A stretch of 64,000 bases of DNA from Betaproteobacteria bacterium (GCA_023259135.1 JAHFQX010000011.1:54-64053), one strand, 5' to 3'; shown: positions 26,307 to 40,876, counted from the first letter of the stretch. Notes: a model not told the origin generated them from the letters alone. Numbers and translations are program-made.

Positions 26307-27134
26307 CTATTTCGCGCGAAGGTACAGAACCTTCTGATTTGACCCCGGCGTCTGCCGTTCTTCTGTCACGAAGAGCTCTGTCTTCGCTTTGACGAGATCA
26401 GAGAGCTTCTTGTAGCCGTATAGCCTGGAGTCAAAGTCGGGTTGTAGCTTGGTCAGGTAGCTCCCGAAGGTGCCAAGACGCGCCCATCCGGCGTCGTCAA
26501 TAGACTGCTCCAGCGCGGTGAGAACGAACTTTTTGGGGAATTCAAGCTTTGGCTCTGTTGCTTCGGCAGGTCTCTGGGGCGAAACGGTTTTTTTCTTACC
26601 CGCCACTTTCGGTGGCAGACCGACCGGCTCGGCTGCGGCGCTGGGTCGAAGGACTTCGGTGAACACAAATTTATGGCAGGCATTGCGGAACGCCTCCGGT
26701 GTTTTCTTTTCGCCAAAACCGAGAACCGTGAGCCCCTCTTCGCGCAATCGCATCGCCAGGCCCGTAAAATCGCTGTCGCTGGTGATCAGGCAAAAGCCGT
26801 CGAATTTCCGCGTGTACAGCAAGTCCATGGCATCGATGATCAGCGTGCTGTCCGTGGCGTTCTTTCCGGTCGTGTATGCGAACTGTTGGACCGGCTTGAT
26901 CGCGTATCGCTGCAACACCTTTTTCCATGAGGAACTCGCTGGCGCAGTGAAATCGCCGTATATGCGCCTCACAGTGGCTTCCCCAAATCTTGCGATTTCC
27001 GCGAGCAGACCTTCAATGACGGCGGCCTGGGCGTTGTCAGCGTCAATGAGAACGGCCAATCGAAGAGTAGGCTCTTCGGACTCGGTTTTTTCGGCTAGTC
27101 GTGGAGATGTCAATAGGACTCCAGTCTTCTTCAA
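26307..27134 (-). CDS. NYN-domain (LabA-like) predicted RNase with C-terminal OST-HTH/LOTUS domain
   Basis: NYN core LAVLIDADNA...ATDSTLIIDAMDLLY...FCLITSDSDFTGLAMRLREEGLTVLGFG. A Lys/Pro linker precedes the C-terminal LOTUS-like GWARLGTFGSYLTKLQPDFDSRLYGYKKLSDLV. No ATG lies upstream of the NYN core; the start is a TTG (27134 or 27062). Confidence 0.8.
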   Translation of the reverse strand: MKKTGVLLTSPRLAEKTESEEPTLRLAVLIDADNAQAAVIEGLLAEIARFGEATVRRIYGDFTAPASSSWKKVLQRYAIKPVQQFAYTTGKNATDSTLIIDAMDLLYTRKFDGFCLITSDSDFTGLAMRLREEGLTVLGFGEKKTPEAFRNACHKFVFTEVLRPSAAAEPVGLPPKVAGKKKTVSPQRPAEATEPKLEFPKKFVLTALEQSIDDAGWARLGTFGSYLTKLQPDFDSRLYGYKKLSDLVKAKTELFVTEERQTPGSNQKVLYLRAK

Positions 27135-27212
27135 CGTTCCCGCTCAGGCGTGCGCCGAGCTTGGCGGTTGAAAACAAGGTGGCCGCTCCAGCGCGTCGCC
27201 TGCAGCGGGCAG

Positions 27213-27473
27213 TTAGCCGACGAGTTTATCGTACTCGCCATGCGTGCCAATCCAGAACCAATGGACGCCGTCTGGTACAGGGAGCCCGAGTGCCCTGTAG
27301 TAGAGGCCAACTCGGACGCTGTGATATTGGCCGTTTCCAAGCGTCTTGAAGTGCAACGATGGATGCGCCGGATCGGTCTTGAGCAACGCGTAGTTCCTGT
27401 GTGCGAGAGCTTGAACGTCAGGGGGTAGCGCTTCGAGACACTGCCAAAAGCGTTTTGACGCTGTGTGTCTCAA
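27213..27473 (-). CDS. ParE/RelE-superfamily toxin (ParE-like)
   Basis: 86 aa: ...DPAHPSLHFKTLGNGQYHSVRVGLYYRALGLPVPDGVHWFWIGTHGEYDKLV, the typical ParE-like toxin C-terminus. TTG start overlaps the antitoxin stop (TTGA). Confidence 0.7.
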   Translation of the reverse strand: MRHTASKRFWQCLEALPPDVQALAHRNYALLKTDPAHPSLHFKTLGNGQYHSVRVGLYYRALGLPVPDGVHWFWIGTHGEYDKLVG

Positions 27474-27670
27474 AGCTCTCGCGCCGAGCCAGCGCGATAG
27501 TCGGCAAGCGCTTCCGCAGCCAGTCCGTCAAGCTTGCCGGAGGCAGCATCTTGCTCGATTTGCTTGTCCCACGCAGCCGCATCGAACTCAGCGAACCAGC
27601 GCCGGAATTCAGCTAGTTCTGAAGGCGGCAGTGATTCCACGGCTTTCTCAATCGACTTTACGTTTCCCAT
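27470..27670 (-). CDS. Cognate antitoxin of the ParE-like toxin (small acidic protein)
   Basis: 66 aa from the ATG at 27668-27670: MGNVKSIEKAVESLPPSELAEFRRWFAEFDAAAWDKQIE... Lies upstream of the toxin and overlaps it by 4 nt. Confidence 0.6.
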   Translation of the reverse strand: MGNVKSIEKAVESLPPSELAEFRRWFAEFDAAAWDKQIEQDAASGKLDGLAAEALADYRAGSAREL

Positions 27671-27821
27671 GCTTCCACTCCAATTGGGATGCCACAACAT
27701 CATGAAGTATGCGGCAAGTCGGTGCCTAAGCACAATTTCGTCGACTAACGTTTGCCGTGAACCGGGCGCGGATTTGGGCGCGTCGGTTTCGACGGCACGG
27801 TTGGGTGGCAAAAGGCCGCGC

Positions 27822-28034
27822 TCATAAGTCCCCGGGGCTCAGCCCTGTGCGCTTGGCAATTCGGGCGAGCATCTTGGGGCCAATCGTCTCGCCATCGTGA
27901 AACGCAAAGACGAAATCAGGCCAGCCAGGACGAGAGAGAGTTTTGTGCGATCCGGACTGGCGCTTGAACGTCCAGCCAATCCGAAACAGTGCGGCGAGAA
28001 CACTGCGGGCCTTCGTCGAAGGCCATGAGGTCAT
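27822..28034 (-). CDS. hicA: HicA-family mRNA interferase toxin
   Basis: 70 aa: ...GWTFKRQSGSHKTLSRPGWPDFVFAFHDGETIGPKMLARIAKRTGL. ATGA overlap with the hicB stop. Confidence 0.85.
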   Translation of the reverse strand: MTSWPSTKARSVLAALFRIGWTFKRQSGSHKTLSRPGWPDFVFAFHDGETIGPKMLARIAKRTGLSPGDL

Positions 28035-28237
28035 GCGGCCGGGACAGCAATCGAGATGGGCTGAGGCCCAGCTTCATTATGTTCGAGGCGTTCGGCCAGC
28101 ACGCGCAGGGCGAGCACCTCGGCCTTTGCCATTGCTTCCTGGGGCGTTGCGCCATAGGCAAGAACCCCGGGTAGTTCCGGGACTTCGGCGAGCCAGCGGC
28201 CGTCTTCTTCGCGTTCATGCTCGATAGTGAAATTCAT
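28031..28237 (-). CDS. hicB: HicB-family antitoxin (short form, no DNA-binding domain)
   Basis: 68 aa from the ATG at 28235-28237, preceded by GGAGG: MNFTIEHEREEDGRWLAEVPELPGVLAYGATPQEAMAKAEVLALRVL. Confidence 0.8.
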   Translation of the reverse strand: MNFTIEHEREEDGRWLAEVPELPGVLAYGATPQEAMAKAEVLALRVLAERLEHNEAGPQPISIAVPAA

Positions 28238-28374
28238 AGGGACCTCCGCAATGGCCACTATATTACGCTCATTCGGGTTTTGCCACCCAACGTCGCCGTT
28301 CACCCGGCCGAGGGAAGGCGCGCAGCGCCGCTCCCGAGGGTCGGGTGCAACGGCCTGTTATTACCTCAGCCTGG

Positions 28375-28677
28375 TCACGCGGCTATCTTTCGAAGCACGG
28401 ATGGATGCAGCTCTGCAACTTTGATCAAAGTCTTCGCAGCCGCATTGGGCTCACGACGTCCTTGCTCCCAGTCCTGAAGGGTGCGCACCGACACCCCCAG
28501 CAATTCGGCAAACTTGGCCTGCGAGAGTCCAGATTTCTCCCTCGCCCGGACAATGGGGTAGGACTCAATCGTGTAGCGCCGCCCAACGCGACCAGCTTTG
28601 ATATCCCGGATTCCCCGAAGAATCTCCTCCCCGATATTTCGGGACTTTTCCCATTTGGCCAATTGTTTGTCAGTCAT
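28375..28677 (-). CDS. XRE-family HTH antitoxin (HigA-like partner of a DUF1044/RelE-type toxin)
   Basis: MTDKQLAKWEKSRNIGEEIL.GIRDIKAG...REKSGLSQAKFAELLGVSVRTLQDWEQGRREPNAAAKTLIKV. The ATG at 28675-28677 overlaps the stop of the upstream toxin frame (ATGACTGA). The ORF track starts at 28692. Confidence 0.8.
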   Translation of the reverse strand: MTDKQLAKWEKSRNIGEEILRGIRDIKAGRVGRRYTIESYPIVRAREKSGLSQAKFAELLGVSVRTLQDWEQGRREPNAAAKTLIKVAELHPSVLRKIAA

Positions 28678-29011
28678 CTTTCGCATCTTCAATTGCCTCT
28701 TTCAACGCCTTCAACACGTGGGCCGGGATGTCCTCGCGCACGTTCTTGCCGTAGAGCGTGAGCATCCAAATATGGCCACGAGCAAGACGCAAGCAGTAAA
28801 TGATCCTCAGGCCACCACGTTTTCCGCGCCCTGCGGCGGCTCATCGGAGTTTCCGTACGCCCCCGGAGCCCGGAACGATCTTCCCGGACTCAGGATGTTC
28901 GTTCAGATACGTCTGCAACTCCCGGTATCCGTCGTCATCGAGATATCGATCAAGACTCTTGGTAAAGAACGGTGTCTCGATGAACTCGAACATTCGGCTA
29001 TAATACGGCAT
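28670..29011 (-). pseudogene. RelE/HigB-type toxin (DUF1044/PF06296-like) inactivated by an in-frame TGA
   Basis: The minus frame reads MPYYSRMFEFIETPFFTKSLDRYLDDDGYRELQTYLNEHPESGKIVPGSGGVRKLR*AAAGRGKRGGLRIIYCLRLARGHIWMLTLYGKNVREDIPAHVLKALKEAIEDAKDD*. The TGA at 28841-28843 sits where the family has a conserved Trp (GG.RK.RW). Neither half reaches the 60-aa ORF-track threshold. Confidence 0.75.
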
Positions 29012-29052
29012 TGCCGTAGCCGTGTCCAGAGCTTCGCCGATGTTGATGCTGA

Positions 29053-29075
29053 GGTATAACGACGTGAATTATACC
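29053..29075 (-). promoter_or_regulatory. Putative promoter/operator of the higB-like/XRE module
   Basis: Perfect 7-bp inverted repeat GGTATAA-N9-TTATACC. On the minus strand it contains TATAAT (29068-29073), about 57 nt upstream of the toxin ATG. This is the typical autoregulatory operator layout of type II TA loci. Confidence 0.4.
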
Positions 29076-29101
29076 GCGCGCTTGTGGAGGGATCCTCGGG
29101 G

Positions 29102-29731
29102 CTACGCATCGCGGTACCGATCGTGCGAGTACCGCTGAACCAACAGCGCCGGATCGGCGTCAACAAGTCGTTGGTACTCCACTGAATCCTTCAGAGCATG
29201 GACCAGGCTTGGAATATCTCCAGACTGCATCGTTGCGGCAATCTCAAAGGGCCCACCGATGGCCTCACGATGCGCTGCGTCCGCGAAGGTCTGAAGGTGC
29301 TCCCAAAACGCGAGTTCTTCAGCTTGAGCCACTTCGCCGAGCGCGACTGCATTGAGCCGCGCGCGCAAGTCCAGGTGCGCGATAAGCTTGCGCCTCGCGT
29401 CGACGATCTTTTCTCGAAACTCCATGAGACGCGCGTTCGCTTCGACTAGCACACCGCGGGTCTCGTCGCTCCAGTCCAGCGCGAGAATGTAGTTGGTGGT
29501 TAGATTGTCTTTGTCCTTCCCCATTGACTCCGGGTCCGTCAGCTTGCATTGCTGGAGCAGGATGTACTCGATCATCATCAGATTCAGGTCGTGGAAAAAA
29601 GTATCCGCCACCTCAAGGAGCAGTGCACTCCGCTGATCCGAAGATTCGAAGAGCTCGCCAAAGTGGGTCCGAAGGCTTCGCACCCACACGCACTCTTCGC
29701 AGAAGGCATGAACTATCGCGCGTCGATCCAT
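29102..29731 (-). CDS. HEPN-like protein (AbiU2-type abortive-infection candidate)
   Basis: 209-aa all-helical-looking protein with an R-x4-H motif in VDARRKLIAHLD (RKLIAH). AT-richer codon usage and TA/defence-island context. Family assignment comes from motif memory only. Confidence 0.45.
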   Translation of the reverse strand: MDRRAIVHAFCEECVWVRSLRTHFGELFESSDQRSALLLEVADTFFHDLNLMMIEYILLQQCKLTDPESMGKDKDNLTTNYILALDWSDETRGVLVEANARLMEFREKIVDARRKLIAHLDLRARLNAVALGEVAQAEELAFWEHLQTFADAAHREAIGGPFEIAATMQSGDIPSLVHALKDSVEYQRLVDADPALLVQRYSHDRYRDA

Positions 29732-29813: not shown

Positions 29814-29845
29814 GATAGATAGATGATAGATAGAGATGATAGATA
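29814..29845. repeat. GATA-rich low-complexity tract
   Basis: gatagatagatgatagatagagatgatagata, immediately left of the REP array. Confidence 0.8.
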
Positions 29846-29910
29846 GGGGACAGACCACGGTTTCGATAGATAGGGGACAGACCAATAGATAGGGGACAGA
29901 CCACGGTTTC
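29846..29910 (+). repeat. REP array: three direct copies (one truncated) of GGGGACAGACCACGGTTTC
   Basis: Full copies at 29846-29864 and 29892-29910; truncated copy GGGGACAGACCA at 29873-29884. Each is preceded by (GATA)n. The array abuts the 3' end of the RAYT gene. Confidence 0.85.
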
Positions 29911-29913
29911 TTG

Positions 29914-30633
29914 TTACTCATAACCCTGGATCGCAGGCCCCGATTCGACCGTCTTGCTGGGCCGTCCCGATTTTCCCGGTGTCGCTCGCCTGCCCAGCGC
30001 TTCCGATATTTGGGCAGTAAAACGCTCATTACCCAGCGCATAATTGCCGTTCGTTGCCCTTCGTATTTCATCCACCAGTCCGGGATCAAGTTGGTAACGG
30101 AACAGTTCGCGGTAAGCCGCTTGCCTGGCGGCTGCGTCCATTCCCAATGCGTTGTAGAGCGGATGGGGTTTCAAGAGTGCATCATGTTCCCCTTGCGCGT
30201 TCGCCCGATAGCTCGACCAACGATATTCTCCCGGATGGTCCACTATGCCCGCACGTACCGGGTTGAGTTCGATGTAGCGCTGACAGGCCAGCAGATATGT
30301 TTCTTCCTGCGTCAAACAGGAGCGGTAGCGCCCTTCCCACAAGGTGCCGCTACGCCGATAGGTACGGTTCACATGTTGCACATAGCGCTGTCCCAGCGCT
30401 TTCATCAGTTCGCCCGGAGCCTCTGCCCGGTTGACCGATAGCAACATATGCACATGGTTGGTCATTAGCACATAAGCATGGACTTGGCAGCCAGTCTTGT
30501 CGGCGTATTCAGCCAGCCAATCCAGATAAAAGCGGTAGTCTTCGTCAGCAAAGAAACAGGCTTGGCGATTATTGCCGCGCTGGATCAGGTGAAGCGGAAC
30601 ATTCGACAACATGAGCCGGGCTCGGCGGGGCAT
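29914..30633 (-). CDS. REP-associated tyrosine transposase (RAYT; IS200/Y1 HUH family)
   Basis: 239 aa: MPRRARLMLSNVPLHLIQRGNNRQACFF, HUH motif LMTNHVHMLL, catalytic-Tyr region ACQRYIELNPVRAGIV, then YRWSSY. Confidence 0.88.
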   Translation of the reverse strand: MPRRARLMLSNVPLHLIQRGNNRQACFFADEDYRFYLDWLAEYADKTGCQVHAYVLMTNHVHMLLSVNRAEAPGELMKALGQRYVQHVNRTYRRSGTLWEGRYRSCLTQEETYLLACQRYIELNPVRAGIVDHPGEYRWSSYRANAQGEHDALLKPHPLYNALGMDAAARQAAYRELFRYQLDPGLVDEIRRATNGNYALGNERFTAQISEALGRRATPGKSGRPSKTVESGPAIQGYE

Positions 30634-30682
30634 GGGATGGCTCCAAACAGGAGGGCATGATGGAGTTTATCAGAATACCGTA

Positions 30683-30702
30683 GAATACCGTGGTCTGTCC
30701 CC
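30683..30702 (-). repeat. REP copy (reverse orientation) upstream of the RAYT gene
   Basis: gaataccgtggtctgtcccc is the reverse complement of GGGGACAGACCACGGTATTC. It is preceded by a duplicated agaataccgt. Confidence 0.8.
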
Positions 30703-30971
30703 TATCGCGCCATCACCCAGACGCTCATCTCCGACTACGAGCAGGATCGCCGACGCCTCCACGCCGAGATGATCGTGAAGGTCGCGAAGATCCTCGGGGT
30801 CAGCACCGACGAGCTGCTCGGCAGCAAGGCCGCGCGCAGCGCAGCCAACGGGCCGCTGAGCCTCAAGCTCACGCGGCGCCTGCACCGCACCGCATCGAAG
30901 AACTATCCCCCGCGCGTCAGAAGCTCGTGCTGCAATCCCTCGACACCCTGCTCAAGGGCGCCAGCAGCTAA
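30703..30971 (+). pseudogene. XRE-family HTH regulator remnant (5'-truncated at the REP and frameshifted)
   Basis: Reads ...AITQTLISDYEQDRRRLHAEMIVKVAKILGVSTDELLG...NGPLSLKLTRRLHR, then shifts frame at a tandem 5-bp duplication caccg/caccg (30883-30892) to IEELSPARQKLVLQSLDTLLKGASS*. There is no N-terminal half and no start codon. Confidence 0.55.
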
Positions 30972-31331: not shown

Positions 31332-31433
31332 TTACAGGGGATGTGTTTGGGCTGCATTCCGAGATTCCGAGTAGCCCTTCTTTTCGCTTCCTTAACGGCT
31401 TTCGGGCAGTTGGCCTCTGTAATAATAATAATA

Positions 31434-31496
31434 GGGGACAGACCACGGTTTCTTGCTACGGCAGACAGGCTGCCCTGAAAACCGTGGTCTGTCCCC
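31434..31496. repeat. REPIN-like doublet: two inverted copies of the island REP
   Basis: GGGGACAGACCACGGTTTC (31434-31452), a 24-nt spacer, then GAAAACCGTGGTCTGTCCCC (31477-31496). Can fold as a long hairpin. Preceded by an (AAT)4 tract. Confidence 0.85.
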
Positions 31497-31986
31497 TGTT
31501 TCCTGGTCCCTGGAGGCTGTAGGGCGCCGTGCCGTCGCTGCCGATCGGGCCGCCGTTCGCCAGGAATTCCACCTGCGCCACCGTACCGTCGGGATCGGCG
31601 GCGCTGGCGCTCAGGGTGATCGGGCTTCCGGCCTGATGAAGGCTTCCGGCGCCAGGGGCGGTGAGGGACACCGTGGGGGCCAGGTTGGTGCAGGGGAGGG
31701 CGCCCGCGCGCGCCCGAAACCGCACCCGCCCGCCCGAGGGAAGGCTGGCGTAGCTGAGGGTGACGACGCCGCTCGCGGTGAAGCCGTTCGCCATCGGGGG
31801 GTAATAGAAAAAAAGGTTCTGCTCGGCCTCCTGGTTGGTCCCCGTCTGCGACAGGCTTCCCGTGACCGATTGGCCGTTGAGACTGCTCACCGTGGCGGCC
31901 AGGATGGTCTGCGGGCCGATGCTCGCGTTGGTGCTCACGGCAAACTGCAGGCCATTGCCCGCCTCCATCCCCGAGGGGTAACTCAA
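31456..31986 (-). pseudogene. Fragment of a secreted protein with an Ig-like (bacterial Ig/chitinase-N type) domain, truncated at both ends
   Basis: GC-rich ORF with PTVSLTAPGAGSLHQAGSPITLSASAADPDGTVAQVEFLANGGPIGSDGTAPYSL. The last 18 codons are a translation of the REPIN. TTG pseudo-start with in-frame stops just upstream. Confidence 0.45.
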
Positions 31987-32040
31987 GCTCAGTAAATCAA
32001 TTCGAGCCTGGAACCTTTTTCGTTCTAGGCCGGGCGTCGA

Positions 32041-32283
32041 TTACTTTGTGTTCGCAGGACCTTTTGGTACATCTTTCGCAGAAGTCCCGCCAGGTTTCGG
32101 GACGATGGTAATCGCATCGGGAGGCGGTTTGTCACCAACCCGAGCAACCCAGACCGTTAGAACTACCGACGGAATAACGAACACTGCAAGCGCAAGCGCA
32201 ATGCGCAGCGGTAATCCGAACTTCGACATCAGGAAGAAGACGATAACTCCAAGAACAAAGAAGCCGACGTAAGCAAAGATCAT
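32041..32283 (-). CDS. Small two-TM membrane protein, hypothetical
   Basis: ATG at 32281-32283: MIFAYVGFFVLGVIVFFLMSKFGLPLRIALALAVFVIPSVVLTVWVARV, followed by a Lys/Pro tail. Confidence 0.45.
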   Translation of the reverse strand: MIFAYVGFFVLGVIVFFLMSKFGLPLRIALALAVFVIPSVVLTVWVARVGDKPPPDAITIVPKPGGTSAKDVPKGPANTK

Positions 32284-32401
32284 TGGCAAACCCCGCACTC
32301 TTTACGCACCTTAGGATCATTGGCGAGACGACCGTACTCATTCCTGACGCGCTCAGCCCAAGTCTGGCAGTTCCGGCCGATGATGCAATAAGACGGTAAC
32401 G

Positions 32402-32506
32402 GTGGAGTACTCCCCACAGCCTTACGCATACTCGACGCTGGGCTACGTCAGCCCGATGCAGTTCGAGAATAACTGGACCGCGGCACAGTTGAAGAAAGTC
32501 GCATAA
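32402..32506 (+). pseudogene. Degenerate 3' remnant of an IS3-family transposase (integrase C-terminus)
   Basis: VEYSPQPYAYSTLGYVSPMQFENNWTAAQLKKVA* resembles the ..YN..RPHS.LGY.SP..FE end of IS3 OrfB. A stop lies immediately upstream. Confidence 0.35.
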
Positions 32507-32547
32507 TGGTCCGGTTAAGAACTACGGAATTCAGGGGCAAGGTCAGC

Positions 32548-33099
32548 CTATTCCGGGTAGATCCGAACTTGCGAGAAACGAGCGCGCGACGCCGCGAGAA
32601 TCGCTCGCTCGGCTTTTGTATCAATCGAGTCGTCCAGCAGACCGCGAAGCTTCTTGGGCAGATCGTCGTTGTTGAGCATGAATCCGACCGTAGGCATTCG
32701 GTTGAAGACGACGAAGTAACCTGTGTCCGTTGGTTCGAGCTTCGCATTCCCATACCGCTTTTTCGCATCGCCAAGCCGCGAACCGAGGCCGATTCCATCC
32801 CTGTTGCGGCAAGCCGCATAGATGTCGATAAACACAACTCGCCCATCATTGCTCAGCGAGAAGGAGTAAAGCCTTTCACGCGATGGCAATTGAAGCACTT
32901 CGATTCGGCGCTGCGCGCCCTGGGTTGAGCGCTCTGCGACGCTGTAGTCCGCAGTAAACGCCTCTCGAATCTTCTGCTCCGGATCACCGATCTTTATCTG
33001 TGGTAACCCCTTTGGATCGAACACGCATTCGCCGCCGTAGACCCATGGCGGGTTCATAAGCACGAGGAGAGCGACCAAGGCTAGCTGAATCGTTCTCAT
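32548..33099 (-). CDS. Candidate periplasmic immunity protein for the RHS C-terminal toxin
   Basis: The ATG at 33097-33099 overlaps the toxin stop (ATGA). Signal peptide MRTIQLALVALLVLMNPPWVYG. 183 aa, no recognisable family. Confidence 0.55.
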   Translation of the reverse strand: MRTIQLALVALLVLMNPPWVYGGECVFDPKGLPQIKIGDPEQKIREAFTADYSVAERSTQGAQRRIEVLQLPSRERLYSFSLSNDGRVVFIDIYAACRNRDGIGLGSRLGDAKKRYGNAKLEPTDTGYFVVFNRMPTVGFMLNNDDLPKKLRGLLDDSIDTKAERAILAASRARFSQVRIYPE

Positions 33100-33917
33100 G
33101 GCGTACTCCGGATCTGCTGGCACACGCACTCGTCCGGCTCGATCTTTGGATTGAAACCATTTCTGAGATCAACGTGAACGTGCGCAGGGTAGTCCTTCGC
33201 CAAGACGAAGAATCCGCACTCTGCCGCTGCCCGGCGAAGCTTTGACTTCGATGGGGGTACGTGCACGTCTGCAGCAAGTCCTGTGAGGTGGTAACTCTTC
33301 GGCGCCGCCCCTGGCGTCCCAAGGTTCTGCCCAGGACCGCGCGTACCGCTGGACAGGTAGATTGTCGTATTCAGGCATGTGCTCATGCACTCGAGACCCA
33401 CCATGACAAGCGGATCTGGGAGGCCTGACGTCATGCCGCAACAAGTCTGTACCTCTCGGCCGTCCGGATCGAATGCCGAAATGGGCCGGCCAAGTGCGTA
33501 GAGGTAAAGGTTGGCTAGCTGCGTCGTAGCCGTGGATCCACTTGTCGTAGTAGTACCAATGCCGGCCGGGTCCGGCTGCGTGTAGCGCCCGAGGCCTGGG
33601 TCGTAGGCATCGCGCTCACCGTTATAGAAGAGGCCGGTTTCGCGATCCCGGCGCTGCCCCGGGAAGGCGAGGTCGAACTGGAACGTTCCTAGTCCTGACG
33701 GATTTTCGTCGGCGGGCGAGCCGCCGAACGGTTCTGTGTTGTCTGAACGCCAGACCAGCTGTTGCTGATCGTTATAGACTTGGCGCGGTGTCCCTAAATG
33801 ATCGGCGTGCACGAAGAAATACGCCGGCGCCGTCTGCACGTTCACCGGCACCAAGCGTATCGCATCCGCGATCACATAGAAGGAAGGGGTCAGGTCTTTC
33901 GTTATCACATTGCTCAT
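33096..33917 (-). CDS. RHS core C-terminal end plus polymorphic toxin domain (LAS/peptidase-M15-like), detached fragment
   Basis: YFFVHADHLGTPR...FPGQRRDRETGLFYNGERDAYDPGLGRYTQPDPAGI is the canonical Rhs core end with DPxGI, followed by linker NLYLYALGRPISAFDPDG. The toxin carries SYHLTGLAADV (S-x-H-x2-G-x-A-x-D) and AHVHVD. The first 11 codons (MSNVITKDLTP) are encoded by the inserted element. Confidence 0.75.
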   Translation of the reverse strand: MSNVITKDLTPSFYVIADAIRLVPVNVQTAPAYFFVHADHLGTPRQVYNDQQQLVWRSDNTEPFGGSPADENPSGLGTFQFDLAFPGQRRDRETGLFYNGERDAYDPGLGRYTQPDPAGIGTTTTSGSTATTQLANLYLYALGRPISAFDPDGREVQTCCGMTSGLPDPLVMVGLECMSTCLNTTIYLSSGTRGPGQNLGTPGAAPKSYHLTGLAADVHVPPSKSKLRRAAAECGFFVLAKDYPAHVHVDLRNGFNPKIEPDECVCQQIRSTP

Positions 33918-34850
33918 CTCCGGTCCGCTTCATAAGCCTTCACCAACCGGCTCACGGTCGTGTAGTGCACGCCGAAATGCTCTGCAATTGCCGCCATCGT
34001 ATGCCGACCGGACAAATAGGCAAGAGCAATGGCTTCGTCGCGCGCGTGCGCGGCGGCATAGTCGGACAGCGCACGCTTGAGTGCGCGGCGTTGCGTGCGC
34101 GGGATCTCTGTGAGCGAAGGTTTTTTGTCGACCCAAGCCTGCATTTTCGCGACGAACGCGTCCGAGCCGAGATAGACTTGCCCCTGCAATTGGCTCCACA
34201 CACTGGACAACCGCGCGCCCTCGCGGACAAAGGCCACATATTTCGCGATGGCGCGGGCACGCTGTGACGCGAATTGCGAAAGGGTGAAGTCAACTTGCAA
34301 CCACTCCGGCCTGGCCGCTTGCCCACAGGTGGCGGGGAAACTGCTCCACGGCCATTGATCGAGGCGCCGGACCCGCTTGGCGCGCAGCGGGTTCAGAACG
34401 ACGTAACGGGCAAGCTCCAGCAGATAGCGGTCCTTTTCCACCAGAATGGCTTTGTAGCGCCCTTGAAATACGTGTCCCACGCGCCCATGGCTGCGGTTGA
34501 ATCGCTGAGTGTACACCCCGTTCAACTGGCGCATGCCTTTCGAGAGGTTGGCATCCGGCGTTTCGATGAGTAGATGATAGTGGTTGGTCATCTGGCAATA
34601 GGCATGGCACGCCCAGTTGAAACGGGTGCAGACTTGAGCCAGAGTTTCAAGCCATGCCACGCGATCCTCATCGGACAGGAAAATGTCCTCGCGCCCGTCC
34701 CCGCGAGAAGTGACGTGATAGAGCGCGCCTGCGAGTTCCAGTCTTAGCGGTCTGGCCATGATGGGCTGGATAATAGCCGGGCGGATGTGATAATGAAAGA
34801 CCTGACCCCATTACCTGGTGTGACCCCATTACCGTGGTGACCCCATTACC
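33886..34850 (-). mobile_element. Y1-transposase element inserted in the rhs gene
   Basis: 23-bp inverted repeats with 1 mismatch: GGGGTCAGGTCTTTCGTTATCAC (33886-33908) and GTGATAATGAAAGACCTGACCCC (34787-34809). Three direct copies of TGACCCCATTACC at 34803-34815, 34821-34833 and 34838-34850. Confidence 0.7.
33914..34759 (-). CDS. IS200/RAYT-like Y1 (HUH) transposase with C-terminal DnaA-C-like HTH
   Basis: 281 aa: MARPLRLELAGALYHVTSRG, HUH motif QMTNHYHLLIE, Tyr region ELARYVVLNPLRA, WPWSS, and C-terminal LSGRHTMAAIAEHFGVHYTTVSRLV. Confidence 0.85.
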   Translation of the reverse strand: MARPLRLELAGALYHVTSRGDGREDIFLSDEDRVAWLETLAQVCTRFNWACHAYCQMTNHYHLLIETPDANLSKGMRQLNGVYTQRFNRSHGRVGHVFQGRYKAILVEKDRYLLELARYVVLNPLRAKRVRRLDQWPWSSFPATCGQAARPEWLQVDFTLSQFASQRARAIAKYVAFVREGARLSSVWSQLQGQVYLGSDAFVAKMQAWVDKKPSLTEIPRTQRRALKRALSDYAAAHARDEAIALAYLSGRHTMAAIAEHFGVHYTTVSRLVKAYEADRR

Positions 34851-36965
34851 CCGTGGAGAATCGCTGATGCCCGTCAGCCGGTGGGCGGCATCGTAGGCGT
34901 AGGTGAGCGAGGAGCCGTCGGGCAGCGTGACTTGCGTCAACTGTCCCACGCCGTCATAGGCGTAGCCCGTGGTCTCGCCGCCCACCGAGCGGGAGAGGAG
35001 CCGCCCGCGGGCGTCGTAGGCGAGCTGGGTGGTGAGCCCGTTGGGATCGACGATCGTCAAGGGCCGGCCATGGGGGTCGTAGGCGGGGATGCTCGTGGTG
35101 TGGCCGAGCGCGTTCGTCATCGTGGCCAGGTTGCCCCGCTTGCCGAGATCCGGATCGTCGGGGGGGTGGTAAGTGATGGTGGTGAGGTCGGCAACGTCGG
35201 TGCGGGGACCGTCCACGATCATTTGGGTAACCAGTCCTGGGGTCGTGGCTGAGTAGCTGGTGCTGTGGGTCCAGACCCGGCTTTTGCCGGAGGCGAGGTC
35301 GGTGACGGTCTTGCCGAGCAAGTTGCCCAGGGCATCGTAGGTCAAATCCGTGGTGCGCCCCGGCTCGGTGATGCGGGTCGGCAGCCGGAAGGTGGGGTGC
35401 CAGATCGTGCCAATGGTGCGGGCCTGGGGGGTGCCGGAGGCTTCGGTGCGGGAGGTTTCCAGGTCGGCTCGCCCATAAGCATCCGCTCTCTGATAGGTGG
35501 TCTGGATGCCGTTCCAGTCGGTACGCGAAGCGGTGAATCCGTTGGCGTCAAAGCTGCTGGCAGCAGGCCCGCAGCCGGGGCAGGCCGCACCGGCAATCGC
35601 CAGGGTGCGTACGCTGCCCAGCATGACCTGGAAACTGTATGTCCGGGTGGCGGATACCGTGGAGCTAATGGACTGAGTGACGGTGGAAATGCCGGGATCG
35701 TAGGCGACCGTCACCCGGTTCGCTCCTCCAGCGTGCTCGGAGAGGGTGGCGCGCCCCGCGCCATCGTAGCTCCAGGTCGCAAAGCGGTCACCGTTTTCGT
35801 CGGTAATGCCGGTCAGCGCATGGGGGAAGCCGGGATTCTCATAGTGGTAAATCCGGGTTTTGTTATCCGGATAGCGTATGGAAGCGAGGTGACCTTCCCC
35901 ATCGTAGCCCAAGGTGAATACCTCGCCTCCGGGAGCGGTAACAGTGGCGATTCGATCCTGGGCGTCGTAGCTAAAGGTCAGCGTTCCTCCGAGACTGTGG
36001 GTGACCGAGGCAAGCCTTCCCAGGGCATCATAGGCCAGCGCGTGGGTCAGCCCGGCCCGATTGGCGATGGCGGTTAACCGGCCATCGATGTCGTAGCTCT
36101 CGACCTCATCGTCTGGCGCGGGGGTATAGCGCCAGCCGGCCGGAGCACCCTGGGCGTCGGTCAATCGCTCTAAACGATCCGTGATGTCGGCATCGGGCAC
36201 CCAAGCGCCGCCATTCAGATTGAACAGCAAGGTGCGCCCGTCAGGGCGTCGCACATAAGCGGTACTGATCCCCGCCATGACAGAGAGCTTGATGGAGCGG
36301 TGGTAATTTCCGCGCCAACGCCAGCCTAGGCTCGCTTTGAGGGCTGAAGGGTGGCTGTTGTAGGTCCGCACGAAGCGCAGCGGAAATGGCCCCGCTCCTT
36401 GGTAGTCGGTCTCGACCTGTACCTTGTTGCCAGTGCCAATGTTGATCGGGTTGGTGCAATCGGAGGTGCAGTCGCTGCCATTGTTTTTTTGGGGATCGAG
36501 CGCGGTGTCGCTGAGCGTGCAGGTCCCATCGGCCCCGTTTTGCCACCACCCCGCAGGGCAAACGTTGGCTTTGACAATGATGCGATTTTGGAGGTAGATG
36601 CCAGCACCACACCCCGTTTCATAGCACGTGCAGCCGTAGTCCCAGCCCTCGGACGCGAAGGGGGGCGGAAGATCCGGTGAGACTCCGCAGTACTCAATGT
36701 GACGGATTGAAGTCGTTCCCGTCAGCCCCGACTGGTTTAGCGGGACCAAACCGCATAGGGTGCAGGCGCCGGCGTTAAGCGGGACCGGGATCGAGTCCGC
36801 GGGAACAAAGGTTTCAATGGCGATGGTGGCGGCGGACGCGGGGATCGCCCCGGCCAACGGGCTAAGCCACAGCGCAAGGCAGGCTACCCGGCGGAGATGC
36901 GCTCCAACGGCGCGCATGACGCAACTACCGTCGCCGACTGGGCGGGATGCGAGCGCAACTGGCAT
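34668..36965 (-). CDS. RHS/YD-repeat protein, N-terminal part (interrupted; RHS-derived only down to about 34853)
   Basis: Signal peptide (MRAVGAHLRRVACLALWLSPLAGAIPASA) and a Cys-rich N-domain, then repeated YD motifs (YDALGRL, YDAQDRI, YDGEGHL, YDGAGRA, YDALGNL, YDARGRL, YDGVGQL, YDAAHRL). The C-terminal about 60 codons translate element repeats. Confidence 0.85.
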   Translation of the reverse strand: MPVALASRPVGDGSCVMRAVGAHLRRVACLALWLSPLAGAIPASAATIAIETFVPADSIPVPLNAGACTLCGLVPLNQSGLTGTTSIRHIEYCGVSPDLPPPFASEGWDYGCTCYETGCGAGIYLQNRIIVKANVCPAGWWQNGADGTCTLSDTALDPQKNNGSDCTSDCTNPINIGTGNKVQVETDYQGAGPFPLRFVRTYNSHPSALKASLGWRWRGNYHRSIKLSVMAGISTAYVRRPDGRTLLFNLNGGAWVPDADITDRLERLTDAQGAPAGWRYTPAPDDEVESYDIDGRLTAIANRAGLTHALAYDALGRLASVTHSLGGTLTFSYDAQDRIATVTAPGGEVFTLGYDGEGHLASIRYPDNKTRIYHYENPGFPHALTGITDENGDRFATWSYDGAGRATLSEHAGGANRVTVAYDPGISTVTQSISSTVSATRTYSFQVMLGSVRTLAIAGAACPGCGPAASSFDANGFTASRTDWNGIQTTYQRADAYGRADLETSRTEASGTPQARTIGTIWHPTFRLPTRITEPGRTTDLTYDALGNLLGKTVTDLASGKSRVWTHSTSYSATTPGLVTQMIVDGPRTDVADLTTITYHPPDDPDLGKRGNLATMTNALGHTTSIPAYDPHGRPLTIVDPNGLTTQLAYDARGRLLSRSVGGETTGYAYDGVGQLTQVTLPDGSSLTYAYDAAHRLTGISDSPRGNGVTTVMGSHQVMGSGLSLSHPPGYYPAHHGQTAKTGTRRRALSRHFSRGRARGHFPVR

Positions 36966-37082
36966 GAAACCTCCCTAGGTCATTCAGCGCATCCGCTTCA
37001 TCTGAATGGCATGTTGGGTTAACTCCGTCGGATTCCAGCATGGTGATAGTGAGTTATCAAGCAAATTCGTCTTAGAGAGCGG

Positions 37083-38618
37083 TCAAGGCACCCGTTTCGA
37101 AAAATCCTTGGGTCTGATCCCGGTGAGCCATAAGCCAACCCAATAGACTATGGCCCCCAGCGGAACCAGCCACCCCAGCCGCCCGATCCGGCCGAACAGC
37201 GGCGCCGAGAGCCACCAATCCGCCGCCCCGGCCGCGGCCCACAGGGTGATCCCCATCAGGGCCAGGGCCGCTGTCACTTGCAGCAGAAATTTTCGCCAGC
37301 CTGGCTGGGGGCGATAAATTTCCGCCCGGCGCAGTTCCCGATACAACAGCCCGGCGTTGAGGCAGGCTCCCAGGCCGATGGCTAGCGCCAATCCCGCGTG
37401 CCGCAGGGACCAGATGAAAAGCAGATTCATGGCCTGGGTGGCCGCCAGGGTGATCAGGGCGATTTTCACCGGGGTCTTGATGTTCTGCCGGGCATAAAAA
37501 CCGGGGGCCAGCACTTTGACCAAAATCAGTCCGAGCAAGCCGATGCTGTAAGCCACCAGGGCTTGCCGAGTCATTTCCACATCCGCGACGCCGAACGCCC
37601 CATGGTGGAATAAAGTGGCGATCAGCGGAACCGCCAGCAACGCCAAGGCCAAGGCGGACGGCAGCGCCAGCAGCAAAGTCAGCCGCAGCCCCCAATCCAG
37701 CAGCCTGGAATATTCTTCCGTATCCCGGCTTGCATGATGCTTGGCCAGGGTGGGCAACAAGATGGTCCCCAGAGCCACCCCCAGCAAGCCTGTCGGAAAC
37801 TCCATCAGCCGGTCCGCGTAATACAGCCAGGAAACGCTGCCGTTGGCCAGAAACGAGGCGAAAACGGTGTTGATGAGCAAGCTGATTTGGCTGATGGAAA
37901 CGCCGAACACTGCCGGCCCCATGAGCCGGACGATGCGCCATACGCCTTCGTCGCGAAGATTCAGGCGCAGCCTGGGCAATAGCCCATGGCGCGCCAGAAA
38001 GGGCAACTGAAAGGCCAACTGCAATGCTCCGCCCAGCAAGACTGCCCAGGCCAGCGCCATGACCGGAGGATCGAAATAAGGCGCCAGCCCCAGGGCGAAA
38101 ACGATAAAAGAAACATTCAGCAACACCGGGGTAAAAGCCGGGACCGAGAACTTCCCATAGGTGTTGAGCAGTCCGGCGCAGAGCGAAACCAGGGAAATAA
38201 ACAAAATATAGGGGAAGGTGATCCGGAGCAGATCGACGGTGAGGGCTGCCTTTTCCGGGGTGGCGGCGAATCCCGGGGCCGTCAGGTAAACGATCTGCGG
38301 GGCGAGCAGGACGCCCAGGGCCGCAACCGTCAGCAGCGCCACCAGCAACAAGCTCGCCACGTGGCCGACCAGTTCCAGGGTGGCGCTCGACCCGCGCCGG
38401 TTCTTGTATTCCGCCAGGATGGGAACAAAGGCCTGGGAAAAAGCCCCTTCGGCGAACAGCCGGCGGAGCAAATTGGGAATGCGGAAAGCGACAAAGAAGG
38501 CATCGGTGGCGGCGCCGGCTCCGAAGGCCCGGGCGATGGCGGCATCCCGGATAAAACCGAGAATCCGGGACAGCAAGGTATAACCGCTGACGGTGGCCAG
38601 GGCTTTGAGGAGATTCAT
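37083..38618 (-). CDS. murJ: Lipid II flippase MurJ (MviN)
   Basis: 511 aa: MNLLKALATVSGYTLLSRILGFIRDAAIARAFGAGAATDAFFVAFRIPNLLRRLFAEGAFSQAFVPIL. Confidence 0.95.
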   Translation of the reverse strand: MNLLKALATVSGYTLLSRILGFIRDAAIARAFGAGAATDAFFVAFRIPNLLRRLFAEGAFSQAFVPILAEYKNRRGSSATLELVGHVASLLLVALLTVAALGVLLAPQIVYLTAPGFAATPEKAALTVDLLRITFPYILFISLVSLCAGLLNTYGKFSVPAFTPVLLNVSFIVFALGLAPYFDPPVMALAWAVLLGGALQLAFQLPFLARHGLLPRLRLNLRDEGVWRIVRLMGPAVFGVSISQISLLINTVFASFLANGSVSWLYYADRLMEFPTGLLGVALGTILLPTLAKHHASRDTEEYSRLLDWGLRLTLLLALPSALALALLAVPLIATLFHHGAFGVADVEMTRQALVAYSIGLLGLILVKVLAPGFYARQNIKTPVKIALITLAATQAMNLLFIWSLRHAGLALAIGLGACLNAGLLYRELRRAEIYRPQPGWRKFLLQVTAALALMGITLWAAAGAADWWLSAPLFGRIGRLGWLVPLGAIVYWVGLWLTGIRPKDFSKRVP

Positions 38619-38636: not shown

Positions 38637-40574
38637 TCAGGCGACTCGAGCGGCTTCGGCATCCTCGGGATGGGCGGCGATGGCTTTCAAGACGGTATCC
38701 AATTCCCCAATCTGTTCGCGCAATTGCCGATGCCGGGAAGCCAGCTCCTGAAAACGATCCCGGGCGGAGTGCACGTCGGCGGCGATTTTCCGGGCGCTTT
38801 GCGCCCGATCGATCAAAAGGGCCTCATGGCGCTTGATCTGGGACAGGATTGGGGCAAAAGCGCCCTTGAGCCAACTCTCGGTTTCCTGGCGGGCTTCGGC
38901 GAACAACAACCGCGCTTCGGTGGCCAGTCTGTGATAAAACTTGCGGATCAGAAAGCGCTTTTCCGTCATCACGTTGATCGGATCGGTGCAAAAAGCCTGA
39001 GTGGCCGCCTCCAGGGCCTGCATGCGCAATGCATAGCTGTCCATATCCAGAGGTGGGACAGGAACTCGGGGGAAGCCGCATTTTTCGTGGAATTCGTCGT
39101 AGGCGGAGTCCACCGTTTCCTTTGTCCGGTTCGCGTAGGCGGCGATTTTGTCGGTTTGCTCGCGAAAATGCCGGAGCAGGGAGATCATCCCCCGGGCTAA
39201 TCCCGCCGTGGTCCAGCTTCCCTCCAAATCGGCCAGCTCGGTTCTCAAAATCGTGTCGATACGCTGGCTTTCCAGGGCGGCTAGCAGCAGGGCGCCGTGC
39301 TTCATGAGTTCCTGGCGGCGGTTTTTGAAGGCGCCGACCACCTTGCGCAGCCCGGCCTTGTCGTTTTCCAGCCGGGCGGCCAGCGACTCATAGGCTTCGC
39401 GGCCCTGTCCCGCCAGTTCCTTGAGCTCCGCCAGCTCCCGGTGCAGCGCCTCCAGCTCGCTCCGGACGCCTTGCCGGGAAGCCACAACCATGTTGCCGAT
39501 TTCCCGTCCCACCGCGGCGCGTAAAATATTCAGCCGGGCGGGAATGATTTCCTCGGCCAGCAGCCGTTCCAGGCGCCGGATTCCGCTTTTCTCCAGCATG
39601 GCCTCGTCGTTTCGGATCTTGGCCAACAGCGCTTTCTGGGCGGAGAGAGCCAGCACATGTCGCCGCGGAAGATCCAGGATCTCGGCGGTATTCTCGATTT
39701 GACGCTGGATGGTTTCGCGAATCTCCTCATCGGATTTGAGCTCGTCCCACAGCAGGTCGATCTTGTTGAGGACGGCAATGCGGTGCGCCACGGCGCGCTG
39801 CACGCATTTTTCCCAGACTTCCATGTCGGAGCGGGTCACGCCCGTATCCATCGCCAACAGGAACAGCACCGCGTGAGCATGGGGAATCATGCTCAAGGTC
39901 AGCTCCGGCTCCACGCCCAAGGCGTTCAGGCCCGGCGTGTCGAGGATCACCAAGCCGTTTTTCAGCAGCGGGTGGGGATAATTGATGAGGGCGTGGCGCC
40001 AGGCCGGGATTTCCAGCTTATCGTGCTTCACCACCACGGTGGTGATTCCGGCGCCTTCCGCCCCCACCGCCAGCCCGAGCTCGCGGGCCTCATCGAGGGT
40101 GACGGTCTTGGATTCGGTCAGGCTCTTCATGGCCTGCGCCATTTGCTCCGGGGATTCGAGATTGAGGCGGATTTTGAGCCATTCGACGGGCTTGCGCCGC
40201 AAGCTGGCCAGACTCTCGTCGCTGCGCCGGGTTTCGATGGGCAGCAGCCGGATGTGGGGAACGTCATCGGGATCGTAAAAAATTTCCGTGGGGCACATGG
40301 TGGTGCGGCCCACGTCGGAGGGCAGCAGCCGCCGCTTGAAATCCGAGAAGAACAAGGCATTGATCAGCTCGGTTTTGCCTCTGGAGAACTCGGCGAGGAA
40401 GGCCAGCGTCACCCGGTCATGACGCAAGGCCTCGGTCAAATCGTAGATGCGCAAGGATTGCTGAATATCGCCGAAACCCTGTCGTTCCAGCCAGCTTTGG
40501 TAGGATTGAATGGTGATGATGAGTTCGTCCCGCCAGCGACGGAAACCCTCGATCTGCCGTTCCAGCAAGGTCAT
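38637..40574 (-). CDS. Bacterial dynamin-like GTPase family protein
   Basis: The ATG at 40572-40574 gives 645 aa. P-loop-like LAEFSRGKTELINALF, G-domain ILDTPGLNA, NKIDL, and a long helical stalk. ATGA overlap with the yggU stop. Confidence 0.75.
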   Translation of the reverse strand: MTLLERQIEGFRRWRDELIITIQSYQSWLERQGFGDIQQSLRIYDLTEALRHDRVTLAFLAEFSRGKTELINALFFSDFKRRLLPSDVGRTTMCPTEIFYDPDDVPHIRLLPIETRRSDESLASLRRKPVEWLKIRLNLESPEQMAQAMKSLTESKTVTLDEARELGLAVGAEGAGITTVVVKHDKLEIPAWRHALINYPHPLLKNGLVILDTPGLNALGVEPELTLSMIPHAHAVLFLLAMDTGVTRSDMEVWEKCVQRAVAHRIAVLNKIDLLWDELKSDEEIRETIQRQIENTAEILDLPRRHVLALSAQKALLAKIRNDEAMLEKSGIRRLERLLAEEIIPARLNILRAAVGREIGNMVVASRQGVRSELEALHRELAELKELAGQGREAYESLAARLENDKAGLRKVVGAFKNRRQELMKHGALLLAALESQRIDTILRTELADLEGSWTTAGLARGMISLLRHFREQTDKIAAYANRTKETVDSAYDEFHEKCGFPRVPVPPLDMDSYALRMQALEAATQAFCTDPINVMTEKRFLIRKFYHRLATEARLLFAEARQETESWLKGAFAPILSQIKRHEALLIDRAQSARKIAADVHSARDRFQELASRHRQLREQIGELDTVLKAIAAHPEDAEAARVA

Positions 40575-40876
40575 GGCAATCGTTCCCAGCGGGCCAATAG
40601 CGGCTGGCTGTCCTCGGCGGCGGGGGCCAATTCCAGCATTTTCCTCCGCCCACGGTTGCCTTGGAGCAGCGCCACGCGGCTGGGCGCCACGCCGAAGCTG
40701 CGGCCAAGAAACTCGATCAGGGCGGTGTTGGCCCGCCCGTCCACCGCCGGCGCCGCCAATTTTATTTTCAACGCGTCTCCATGAACGCCTACCACCGCCG
40801 TCCGGGAAGCGCCCGGCTGCACCGTCACGACAAGCCGCAACCGGCCGTCCCGCCAATGATACCAAGACGCCGTCAT
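40571..40876 (-). CDS. yggU: DUF167 protein YggU
   Basis: 101 aa: L.V.VQPGASR....G.HGDALKIKLAAPAVDGRANTALIEFL. Confidence 0.85.
   Translation of the reverse strand: MTASWYHWRDGRLRLVVTVQPGASRTAVVGVHGDALKIKLAAPAVDGRANTALIEFLGRSFGVAPSRVALLQGNRGRRKMLELAPAAEDSQPLLARWERLP

Follow-up and report, generated by a model that had tools for sequence, protein, structure and literature searches.

Described relatives of the locus

RHS-repeat proteins with Sec/'T2SS' signal peptides form a standard class in the catalogue of polymorphic toxins compiled by Zhang et al. 2012 (PMC3482391), which also holds RHS toxins tipped with an L,D-peptidase and polymorphic toxins tipped with an NlpC/P60 peptidase, both groups predicted to target the cell wall, and makes no mention of M15, LAS or D-Ala-D-Ala peptidases. 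M15-type peptidases are annotated among predicted type VI secretion system (T6SS) effectors: Tpe14 of A. baumannii combines LysM with Peptidase_M15_3, and Neisseria encodes VgrG-linked LysM/Peptidase M15 proteins (PMC6833914, PMC10210955). Toxins with a YD shell are also described outside the T6SS, namely the bacteriocin Bcn-A of Xanthomonas perforans (PMC7259588) and bacterial teneurin-like proteins, which are Sec-targeted and include one C-terminal domain that is toxic only when directed to the periplasm (PMC13018210). Here we describe a locus on a 64,000-nucleotide stretch of DNA from a Betaproteobacteria bacterium (GCA_023259135.1, JAHFQX010000011.1:54-64053; hereafter the window), in which a 273-aa open reading frame (ORF; 33096-33917, minus strand) joins the tail of an Rhs-associated core to a candidate toxin, and a 183-aa ORF (32548-33099, minus strand) directly downstream encodes a putative exported partner.

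We consider it likely that the locus is a genuine Rhs polymorphic toxin-immunity cassette, with an M15A-type tip and a periplasmic partner, that has been stranded by the insertion of a mobile element of the RAYT type (repetitive extragenic palindrome (REP)-associated tyrosine transposase). With the Rhs/YD toxins of the published catalogue (PMC3482391) this system shares the Rhs tail, the C-terminal toxin, the adjacent immunity gene, arrays of orphan cassettes, an N-terminal Sec signal and a predicted peptidoglycan target; it differs in that the M15/LAS toxin domain is not listed there and the immunity family has no Pfam model. The T6SS effectors of the M15 type likewise use such a peptidase as an interbacterial toxin acting in the periplasm, but they are VgrG-linked LysM proteins, whereas the carrier here, an Rhs protein, has a Sec signal and lacks PAAR, VgrG and LysM. 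As to Bcn-A and the teneurin-like proteins, which are also large YD-shell proteins outside the T6SS paradigm, no relation was seen beyond the YD shell; their N-terminal domains and toxins are different.

The initial annotation of the window, made from the sequence alone, had regarded a cell-wall peptidase tip on a Sec-signal Rhs protein as an unusual combination of effector and delivery. This view has to be toned down, because Sec-signal RHS toxins and RHS toxins with peptidoglycan-directed tips have both been catalogued (PMC3482391) and M15_3 domains are annotated in predicted T6SS effectors (PMC6833914). The parts are known; their combination, an Rhs tail bearing an M15 tip alongside this family of immunity proteins, is rare and appears to be undescribed. 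In the papers searched, we found no description of an M15A peptidase paired on Rhs with an immunity protein resembling YfeY (see below).

A LAS/M15A zinc peptidase domain at the Rhs tip

All motifs quoted in the initial annotation are present on the minus strand within the 273-aa ORF: DPAGI, NLYLYALGRPISAFDPDG, SYHLTGLAADV (with S208, H210, G213, A215 and D217) and AHVHVD (with H246, H248 and D250). Their division between core and toxin has to be redrawn. DPAGI had been taken for the end of the Rhs core and NLYLYALGRPISAFDPDG for a linker, but the NCBIfam model of the Rhs-associated core (TIGR03696) covers aa 62-153 of the ORF (59.9 bits vs a cut-off of 32.5) and runs on to a second motif, DPDG/REVQ, with NLYLYALGRPISAFDPDG forming part of the core. 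In all homologues the toxin begins directly after DPDG. The Rhs C-terminal tail, from the RHS-associated core to DPDG, occupies positions 33459-33885 (minus strand), is preceded by the residues FYVIADAIRLVPV and, as delimited by TIGR03696 and by alignment, corresponds to aa 421-649 of the related protein P0021. The toxin domain itself spans aa 154-273 (33099-33458, minus strand) and is followed by a TGA stop codon (33096-33098).

Assignment of this domain to the LAS/M15A zinc peptidases, already proposed in the initial annotation, is borne out by profiles, motifs and predicted structure. Pfam family PF08291 (Peptidase_M15_3) is hit over aa 168-250 (E=2.6e-7; 31.2 bits vs a gathering score of 23.2), and homologues of the toxin (P0019, P0020 and those of loci L009/L012) score 37-52 bits against the same model. 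Among phage families, PHROG 894 ('endolysin') matches with E=7.4e-10. A profile of the toxin family retrieves from the PDB the Zn DD-peptidase of S. albus G (1lbu, E=0.003), with toxin R193, H210 and D217 aligned to R138, H154 and D161 of the enzyme. When Rhs tips and stand-alone M15_3 peptidases are aligned together, R193, S208, H210, G213, D217 and H248 are invariant and D250 is nearly so. The predicted zinc ligands are H210 (33288-33290), D217 (33267-33269) and H248 (33174-33176); the codons of the conserved R193 and D250 lie at 33339-33341 and 33168-33170, respectively (all minus strand). The earlier reading of AHVHVD has to be narrowed to H248, as only the second histidine of 'HVH' is kept across the family and H246 varies.

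The AlphaFold2 (AF2) model of the toxin (pLDDT 88.6, pTM 0.84) agrees with this assignment. In Foldseek searches against the PDB, its leading matches are 1lbu (prob 1.0), Hedgehog N-domains, ChiX, LysECD7 and the endolysins of T5 and RB49; against BFVD they are phage 'Peptidase M15A' proteins, with E-values down to 1.4e-5 and TMq up to 0.66. Taken together, the hidden Markov models, the motifs and the predicted fold identify the tip as a predicted LAS/M15A-type zinc peptidase domain. It has in common with the M15A family (1lbu and the phage 'Peptidase M15A' endolysin domains) the fold, the S-G-x-R, S-x-H-x2-G-x-A-x-D and H-x-D motifs, a length of ~120 aa and an N-terminal Cys pair that aligns with the C-x-C-G of stand-alone members. 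It is distinguished from them by its fusion to an Rhs tail, by extra invariant cysteines (C-x3-C and a C-terminal C-x-C) and by a dedicated putative immunity protein.

The cysteines had initially been taken as a sign of an oxidising compartment. This argument is weakened, as the N-terminal pair is aligned with a feature of the stand-alone M15_3 peptidases, their N-terminal E-F-x-C-x-C-G corresponding to T-C-C-G in the Rhs toxin. The pairs added in the Rhs toxin family, C-x3-C and the C-terminal C-x-C, are invariant and could form either a second metal site or disulfides.

A rare subfamily confined to Rhs tips in the sequences examined

The toxin resembles only 7 clusters among 5.8 billion, and every sequence examined from them is an Rhs tip. 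When 1.84 billion representatives were searched with a profile, 11 clusters lay at E<1e-30, where again every examined sequence is an Rhs tip, followed by a gap and then by stand-alone M15_3 peptidases of ~120 aa at E ~1e-11 or weaker. Because of this separation, the M15 toxin of Rhs tips is, as judged from sequence comparison, a separate and rare subfamily of Peptidase_M15_3. The 11 clusters include two full-length proteins, P0019 (1492 aa) and P0020 (1876 aa); P0020 has an N-terminal Sec-type signal peptide, and Pfam found no PAAR domain in either. Besides full-length Rhs proteins, the M15 tip is carried by a protein with a Big_7-type tail (P0025), and most often it occurs as an orphan cassette behind another toxin (loci L001, L004, L005, L009 and L020).

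A linked partner with an export signal

The 183-aa ORF (32548-33099, minus strand) opens on an ATG (33097-33099) that overlaps the stop codon of the toxin (33096-33098) as ATGA. Its N-terminus, MRTIQLALVALLVLMNPPWVYG, has the make-up of a signal peptide (about aa 1-22; 33034-33099, minus strand): a residue that is basic comes first, then a hydrophobic segment and the site V-Y-G/A-Y-G/A-Y-A. In the family, the mature part begins at an invariant cysteine, C25, and a second invariant cysteine is C97. The initial annotation had pointed to the overlap and to the signal peptide in naming this protein a candidate for periplasmic immunity, and comparison of loci strengthens the case. A homologue lies directly downstream of the toxin in nine independent loci (the window, L001, L004, L005, L006, L007, L009, L012 and L020), two of which contain full-length Rhs genes, and the homologues are 28-74% identical. 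L001 and L006 show the ATGA overlap as well, and the L006 protein carries a lipobox (LFVAAC). Toxin and partner diverge in parallel: between L004 and the window, the toxins are 61% and the partner proteins 33% identical. Both genes have evolved under purifying selection, with ratios of nonsynonymous to synonymous substitution rates (dN/dS) of about 0.1-0.2 between loci (about 0.08-0.12 for the toxin and about 0.15-0.18 for the immunity gene), values that are approximate, as dS is near saturation.

By sequence, the protein from the window has no match in Pfam, NCBIfam or PHROGs, and an alignment of the diverse immunity family found none in profile searches against Pfam and the PDB. Its AF2 model (pLDDT 79), however, is matched by Foldseek to YfeY of E. 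coli (2qzb; E=3.6e-5, prob 1.0). YfeY is a lipoprotein of unknown function. Because of the strict linkage, the parallel divergence and the export signal, the 183-aa protein is likely the cognate periplasmic immunity protein of the M15 toxin, which it would neutralise.

The carrier gene is interrupted by a probable RAYT-type element

Upstream of the toxin ORF lies the other part of an Rhs gene, a 765-aa ORF (34668-36965, minus strand) with a Sec-type N-terminus, DUF6531 (62.3 bits in Pfam) and eight RHS repeats (RHS_repeat, 155.8 bits). Its Rhs homology ends at aa ~703 ('GISDS'), and the last 60 codons are read-through into an inserted element. What remains of the shell gene is thus a 5' fragment (34857-36965, minus strand) composed of a Sec-type signal peptide, a Cys-rich N-domain, DUF6531 and RHS repeats, collinear with aa 230-736 of P0020 and with aa 31-343 of the first gene (gene A) of locus L020, of which 842 aa are visible before the contig ends. 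The residue equivalent to the break is aa 736 of 1876 in P0020, aa 94 in P0021 and aa 343 of the visible 842 in L020 gene A; intact shell 'gene A' proteins of relatives have ~1220 aa.

The inserted element (33886-34855, minus strand; 0.97 kb) appears to be of the RAYT type, judging by its repeats and its Y1 transposase. Inverted repeats of 25 nt, 96% complementary to each other (33886-33910 and 34785-34809), flank its gene for a 281-aa Y1 (IS200-like/RAYT-like) transposase with a C-terminal helix-turn-helix (HTH) domain (33914-34759, minus strand), and three TGACCCCATTACC units stand in tandem at 34803-34855. Pattern searches recovered two copies of the inverted repeat and three of the tandem unit, with 0 expected. 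The transposase is matched by Pfam Y1_Tnp (E=8.9e-13), and by NCBIfam REP_Tyr_transpos with 79.7 bits, just under the cut-off of 80. No further copy of the element with the 25-nt repeats is present in the window, which gives no sign of repetitive, REP-like behaviour. The toxin ORF opens on a start codon (33915-33917) placed 5-7 nt inside the right inverted repeat of the element (33886-33910); this codon shares bases with the stop codon of the transposase (33914-33916), again as ATGA, and the ORF has neither signal peptide nor shell.

Judged from relatives at 41-51% identity, the element has replaced about 2.8 kb, corresponding to ~500 aa of the shell and a Golvesin_C module of ~425 aa. The first Rhs-system residues of the 273-aa ORF, FYVIADAIRLVPV, are the last strand of the lost Golvesin_C domain, and the junction between this strand and the tail recurs in L005, L009, P0181 and P0183. 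We also considered that the N- and C-terminal fragments come from different genes, as the latter opens with a Golvesin_C strand; this was rejected, since single chains in the order shell-Golvesin_C-tail exist (P0181, P0183 and P0266). A complete YD shell with an N-terminal trafficking domain is present in P0019, P0020, L027 and L028 and is lacking here. Two independent ENA assemblies show the locus broken in the same way, so that an assembly quirk in a single data set does not explain it. A scan of positions 32000-37200 for promoters and terminators returned no more than expected by chance.

These comparisons indicate that a probable RAYT-type element cuts the Rhs gene and that the delivery vehicle is destroyed; having lost signal peptide and shell, the toxin would not be deliverable from this locus. 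The initial description of the toxin as the tip of a Sec-signal RHS protein thus applies to intact relatives, such as P0020 with its signal peptide and no PAAR domain, and not to the window, in which the gene is cut by the element.

Intact relatives use Sec signals

Proteins that unite a signal peptide and an Rhs tail with three or four Golvesin_C domains and a toxin that varies are common. At E<1e-20 they form 644 clusters, most of which come from Burkholderiales, Betaproteobacteria and metagenome-assembled genomes of Gemmatimonadaceae, and they bear the NCBI name 'RHS repeat-associated core domain-containing protein'. Two arrangements can be distinguished. P0181, P0183 and P0266 carry the Golvesin_C block inserted in frame, after the last shell repeat (…YLGDIPVMVV) and before the tail. 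In the split form (L005, L009, L020, L027 and L028), the shell gene stops exactly after …YLGDIPVxVxQ and a second gene with its own signal peptide starts 0-25 nt further on, or with a 4-nt overlap in L020 and L027. The five split loci, in which Golvesin_C or Big_7 forms a block ahead of the tail, are L005:2-2319, L009:2-3935, L020:543-4210, L027:6342-12067 and L028:6308-11746. In the papers searched, no description of an Rhs gene split at the Golvesin_C/Big_7 junction was found. No PAAR, VgrG or T6SS genes are present within 10 kb in L026-L029. Judging by these sequences, the intact carriers are Sec-signal Rhs proteins without PAAR, made either as one chain or from two overlapping genes with their own signal peptides.

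Tips found on Golvesin_C-Rhs carriers include Colicin_M, Tlde1_dom, phospholipase A2, Ntox10 and Ntox16, several of them envelope-acting. We tentatively suggest, as a minority possibility, that the intact relatives represent a T6SS-independent, Sec-exported Rhs route with Golvesin_C/Big_7 modules, perhaps specialised for tips that act in the periplasm, on which the M15 peptidase and its YfeY-like partner would be a new pair. This Sec-dependent carrier with Golvesin_C, sometimes encoded by two genes, is the more interesting lead to emerge from the locus. The locus points to carriers that use Sec signals instead of T6SS adaptors. A toxin that needs to get no further than the periplasm, and whose activity can be read out by a simple enzymatic assay (muropeptides), would serve well as a probe of how Sec-exported Rhs/YD-shell toxins of Gram-negative bacteria reach their targets. 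The pair itself, an M15A zinc peptidase and a YfeY-like periplasmic protein, adds a rare and well-defined toxin-immunity combination to the Rhs repertoire; for the genome analysed here the meaning is smaller, the cassette being a remnant.

Some further observations concern individual relatives. The Colicin_M, Tlde1 and phospholipase A2 tips of P0185, P0234, P0183 and P0173 are consistent with carriers that reach only the periplasm. Beside the intact split Rhs system of L027 lies a divergently oriented cluster resembling a type II secretion system (T2SS), with a secretin, a PilN-like protein, T2SSE, T2SSF and a T2SSG pseudopilin (L027:1-5634); it is absent from L026, L028 and L029, may be a coincidence, and no link is claimed. 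The main toxin of the Big_7-tail protein of L020 (L020:3068-4210) has no Pfam hit and contains S-G-H-Y-S-G-D-A-V-D ... H-Y-H, so that it may be a second, divergent LAS-like toxin. The 197-aa gene downstream of it does not clearly belong to the immunity family (18% identity).

Proposed role of the cassette and alternative explanations

In the mechanism that we propose, the tip would be released from the Rhs tail at DPDG/R and is predicted to cut peptide bonds in peptidoglycan or in a lipid-linked precursor in the periplasm of the target cell. The 183-aa partner would be exported by Sec, as a lipoprotein in at least one relative, and would neutralise the toxin in the periplasm, presumably by binding to it. 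Insertion of the element would have left the toxin of the window as a stranded, silent cassette, in which the intact immunity gene could still protect the cell against neighbours with the same toxin. The cassette has probably been kept for its immunity gene.

Several points weigh against this interpretation. The toxin ORF is fully intact and its start codon overlaps the stop codon of the transposase, making residual expression possible. LAS enzymes span DD-, LD- and L-Ala-D-Glu peptidases, and the fold does not fix the bond that is cleaved. Signal peptides were called by eye and from conservation, and the size of the deletion is taken from relatives at 41-51% identity. Furthermore, the analysis covers the window, and a T6SS or an intact second copy may be encoded elsewhere in the genome. 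Within the window, none of the 33 ORFs scanned with Pfam, all from among the longer ones, is a T6SS, PAAR or VgrG gene, in agreement with the initial annotation.

Of the alternatives, the one that survives best, though we regard it as improbable, is that the 273-aa fragment is still made, through ATGA coupling to the transposase, and acts with the immunity gene as an addiction-like module, lending stability to the island or to the element. The ORF is indeed intact, the overlap is real, both genes have been under strong purifying selection and the island is rich in toxin-antitoxin modules. However, the toxin product has no signal peptide and its antidote is exported, which would place the two in different compartments, and GGAG abuts the ATG of the toxin ORF, a poor spacing. 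Moreover, the measured selection reflects the history between loci and not the time since the insertion, and such an arrangement has no precedent among related loci.

Somewhat less probable still is the idea that the M15 domain acts on cytoplasmic wall precursors in the manner of VanX or VanY (on D-Ala-D-Ala or UDP-MurNAc-pentapeptide), or that it is non-catalytic and Hedgehog-N-like, the downstream protein not being an immunity protein. The LAS superfamily does include the cytoplasmic VanX and the Hedgehog N-domain, and Hedgehog domains are among the Foldseek matches, yet the catalytic Arg, His, Asp and His-x-Asp are all conserved, and the closest relatives of the toxin are M15A peptidases of the phage endolysin type. 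In the loci examined, the strictly linked partner has either a signal peptide or a lipobox, which also argues for periplasmic action, as do the colicin M, Tlde1 and phospholipase A2 tips on carriers of this type, all of which are envelope-acting.

Finally, the shell fragment with its signal peptide, DUF6531 and RHS repeats, and the intact Sec-signal carriers of the same toxin elsewhere, might suggest a functional Sec-signal Rhs protein by which this cell delivers the M15 toxin. This is already refuted for the window unless the assembly is wrong, as the shell ORF runs into the transposase element at aa ~703 and then stops, ~500 aa of the shell are missing together with the Golvesin_C module, and the toxin ORF, which has no signal peptide, starts within the inverted repeat of the element.

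Genomic neighbourhood

The stranded cassette is part of an island of lower GC content (about 26.3-37 kb; 57-60% vs 62-68% GC) between aroC and murJ. Downstream of the immunity gene lies the remnant of an ORF with a Big_7 Ig domain (31456-31986, minus strand; Pfam Big_7, E=1.2e-15). Proteins that combine Big_7, an Rhs tail and a toxin are found in L020 and P0025, and the remnant may represent the beginning of another carrier or orphan module, truncated by a REP pair (31430-31500). The truncation of the Big_7 ORF is due to a head-to-head pair of AGGGGACAGACCACGGT (31433-31497), in an arrangement of the REP/RAYT type. Inverted copies of AGGGGACAGACCACGGT also flank a second Y1/RAYT-like gene (29914-30633, within 29842-30706); there are five copies vs 0.01 expected. 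Between the remnant and the cassette, a short frame on the plus strand (32400-32506), ending in ...STLGYVSPMQFENNWTAAQLKKVA and a stop codon, abuts the end of the immunity gene; it is too short to give a match in Pfam and by eye looks like the 3' end of an IS3-family transposase.

The aroC side of the island is occupied by a toxin-antitoxin/defence cluster (26307-29731) that includes an NYN/OST-HTH protein, a ParE-like toxin (27213-27473), HicA/HicB (27822-28303), an MqsA/XRE-type HTH protein, presumably an antitoxin (28375-28692), and a HEPN AbiU2 protein (29102-29731). Elsewhere in the window, the type IV pilus genes at 43-54 kb resemble those of an ordinary housekeeping pilus, and a 742-aa dynamin-family protein is encoded directly beside murJ (38637-40865, minus strand).

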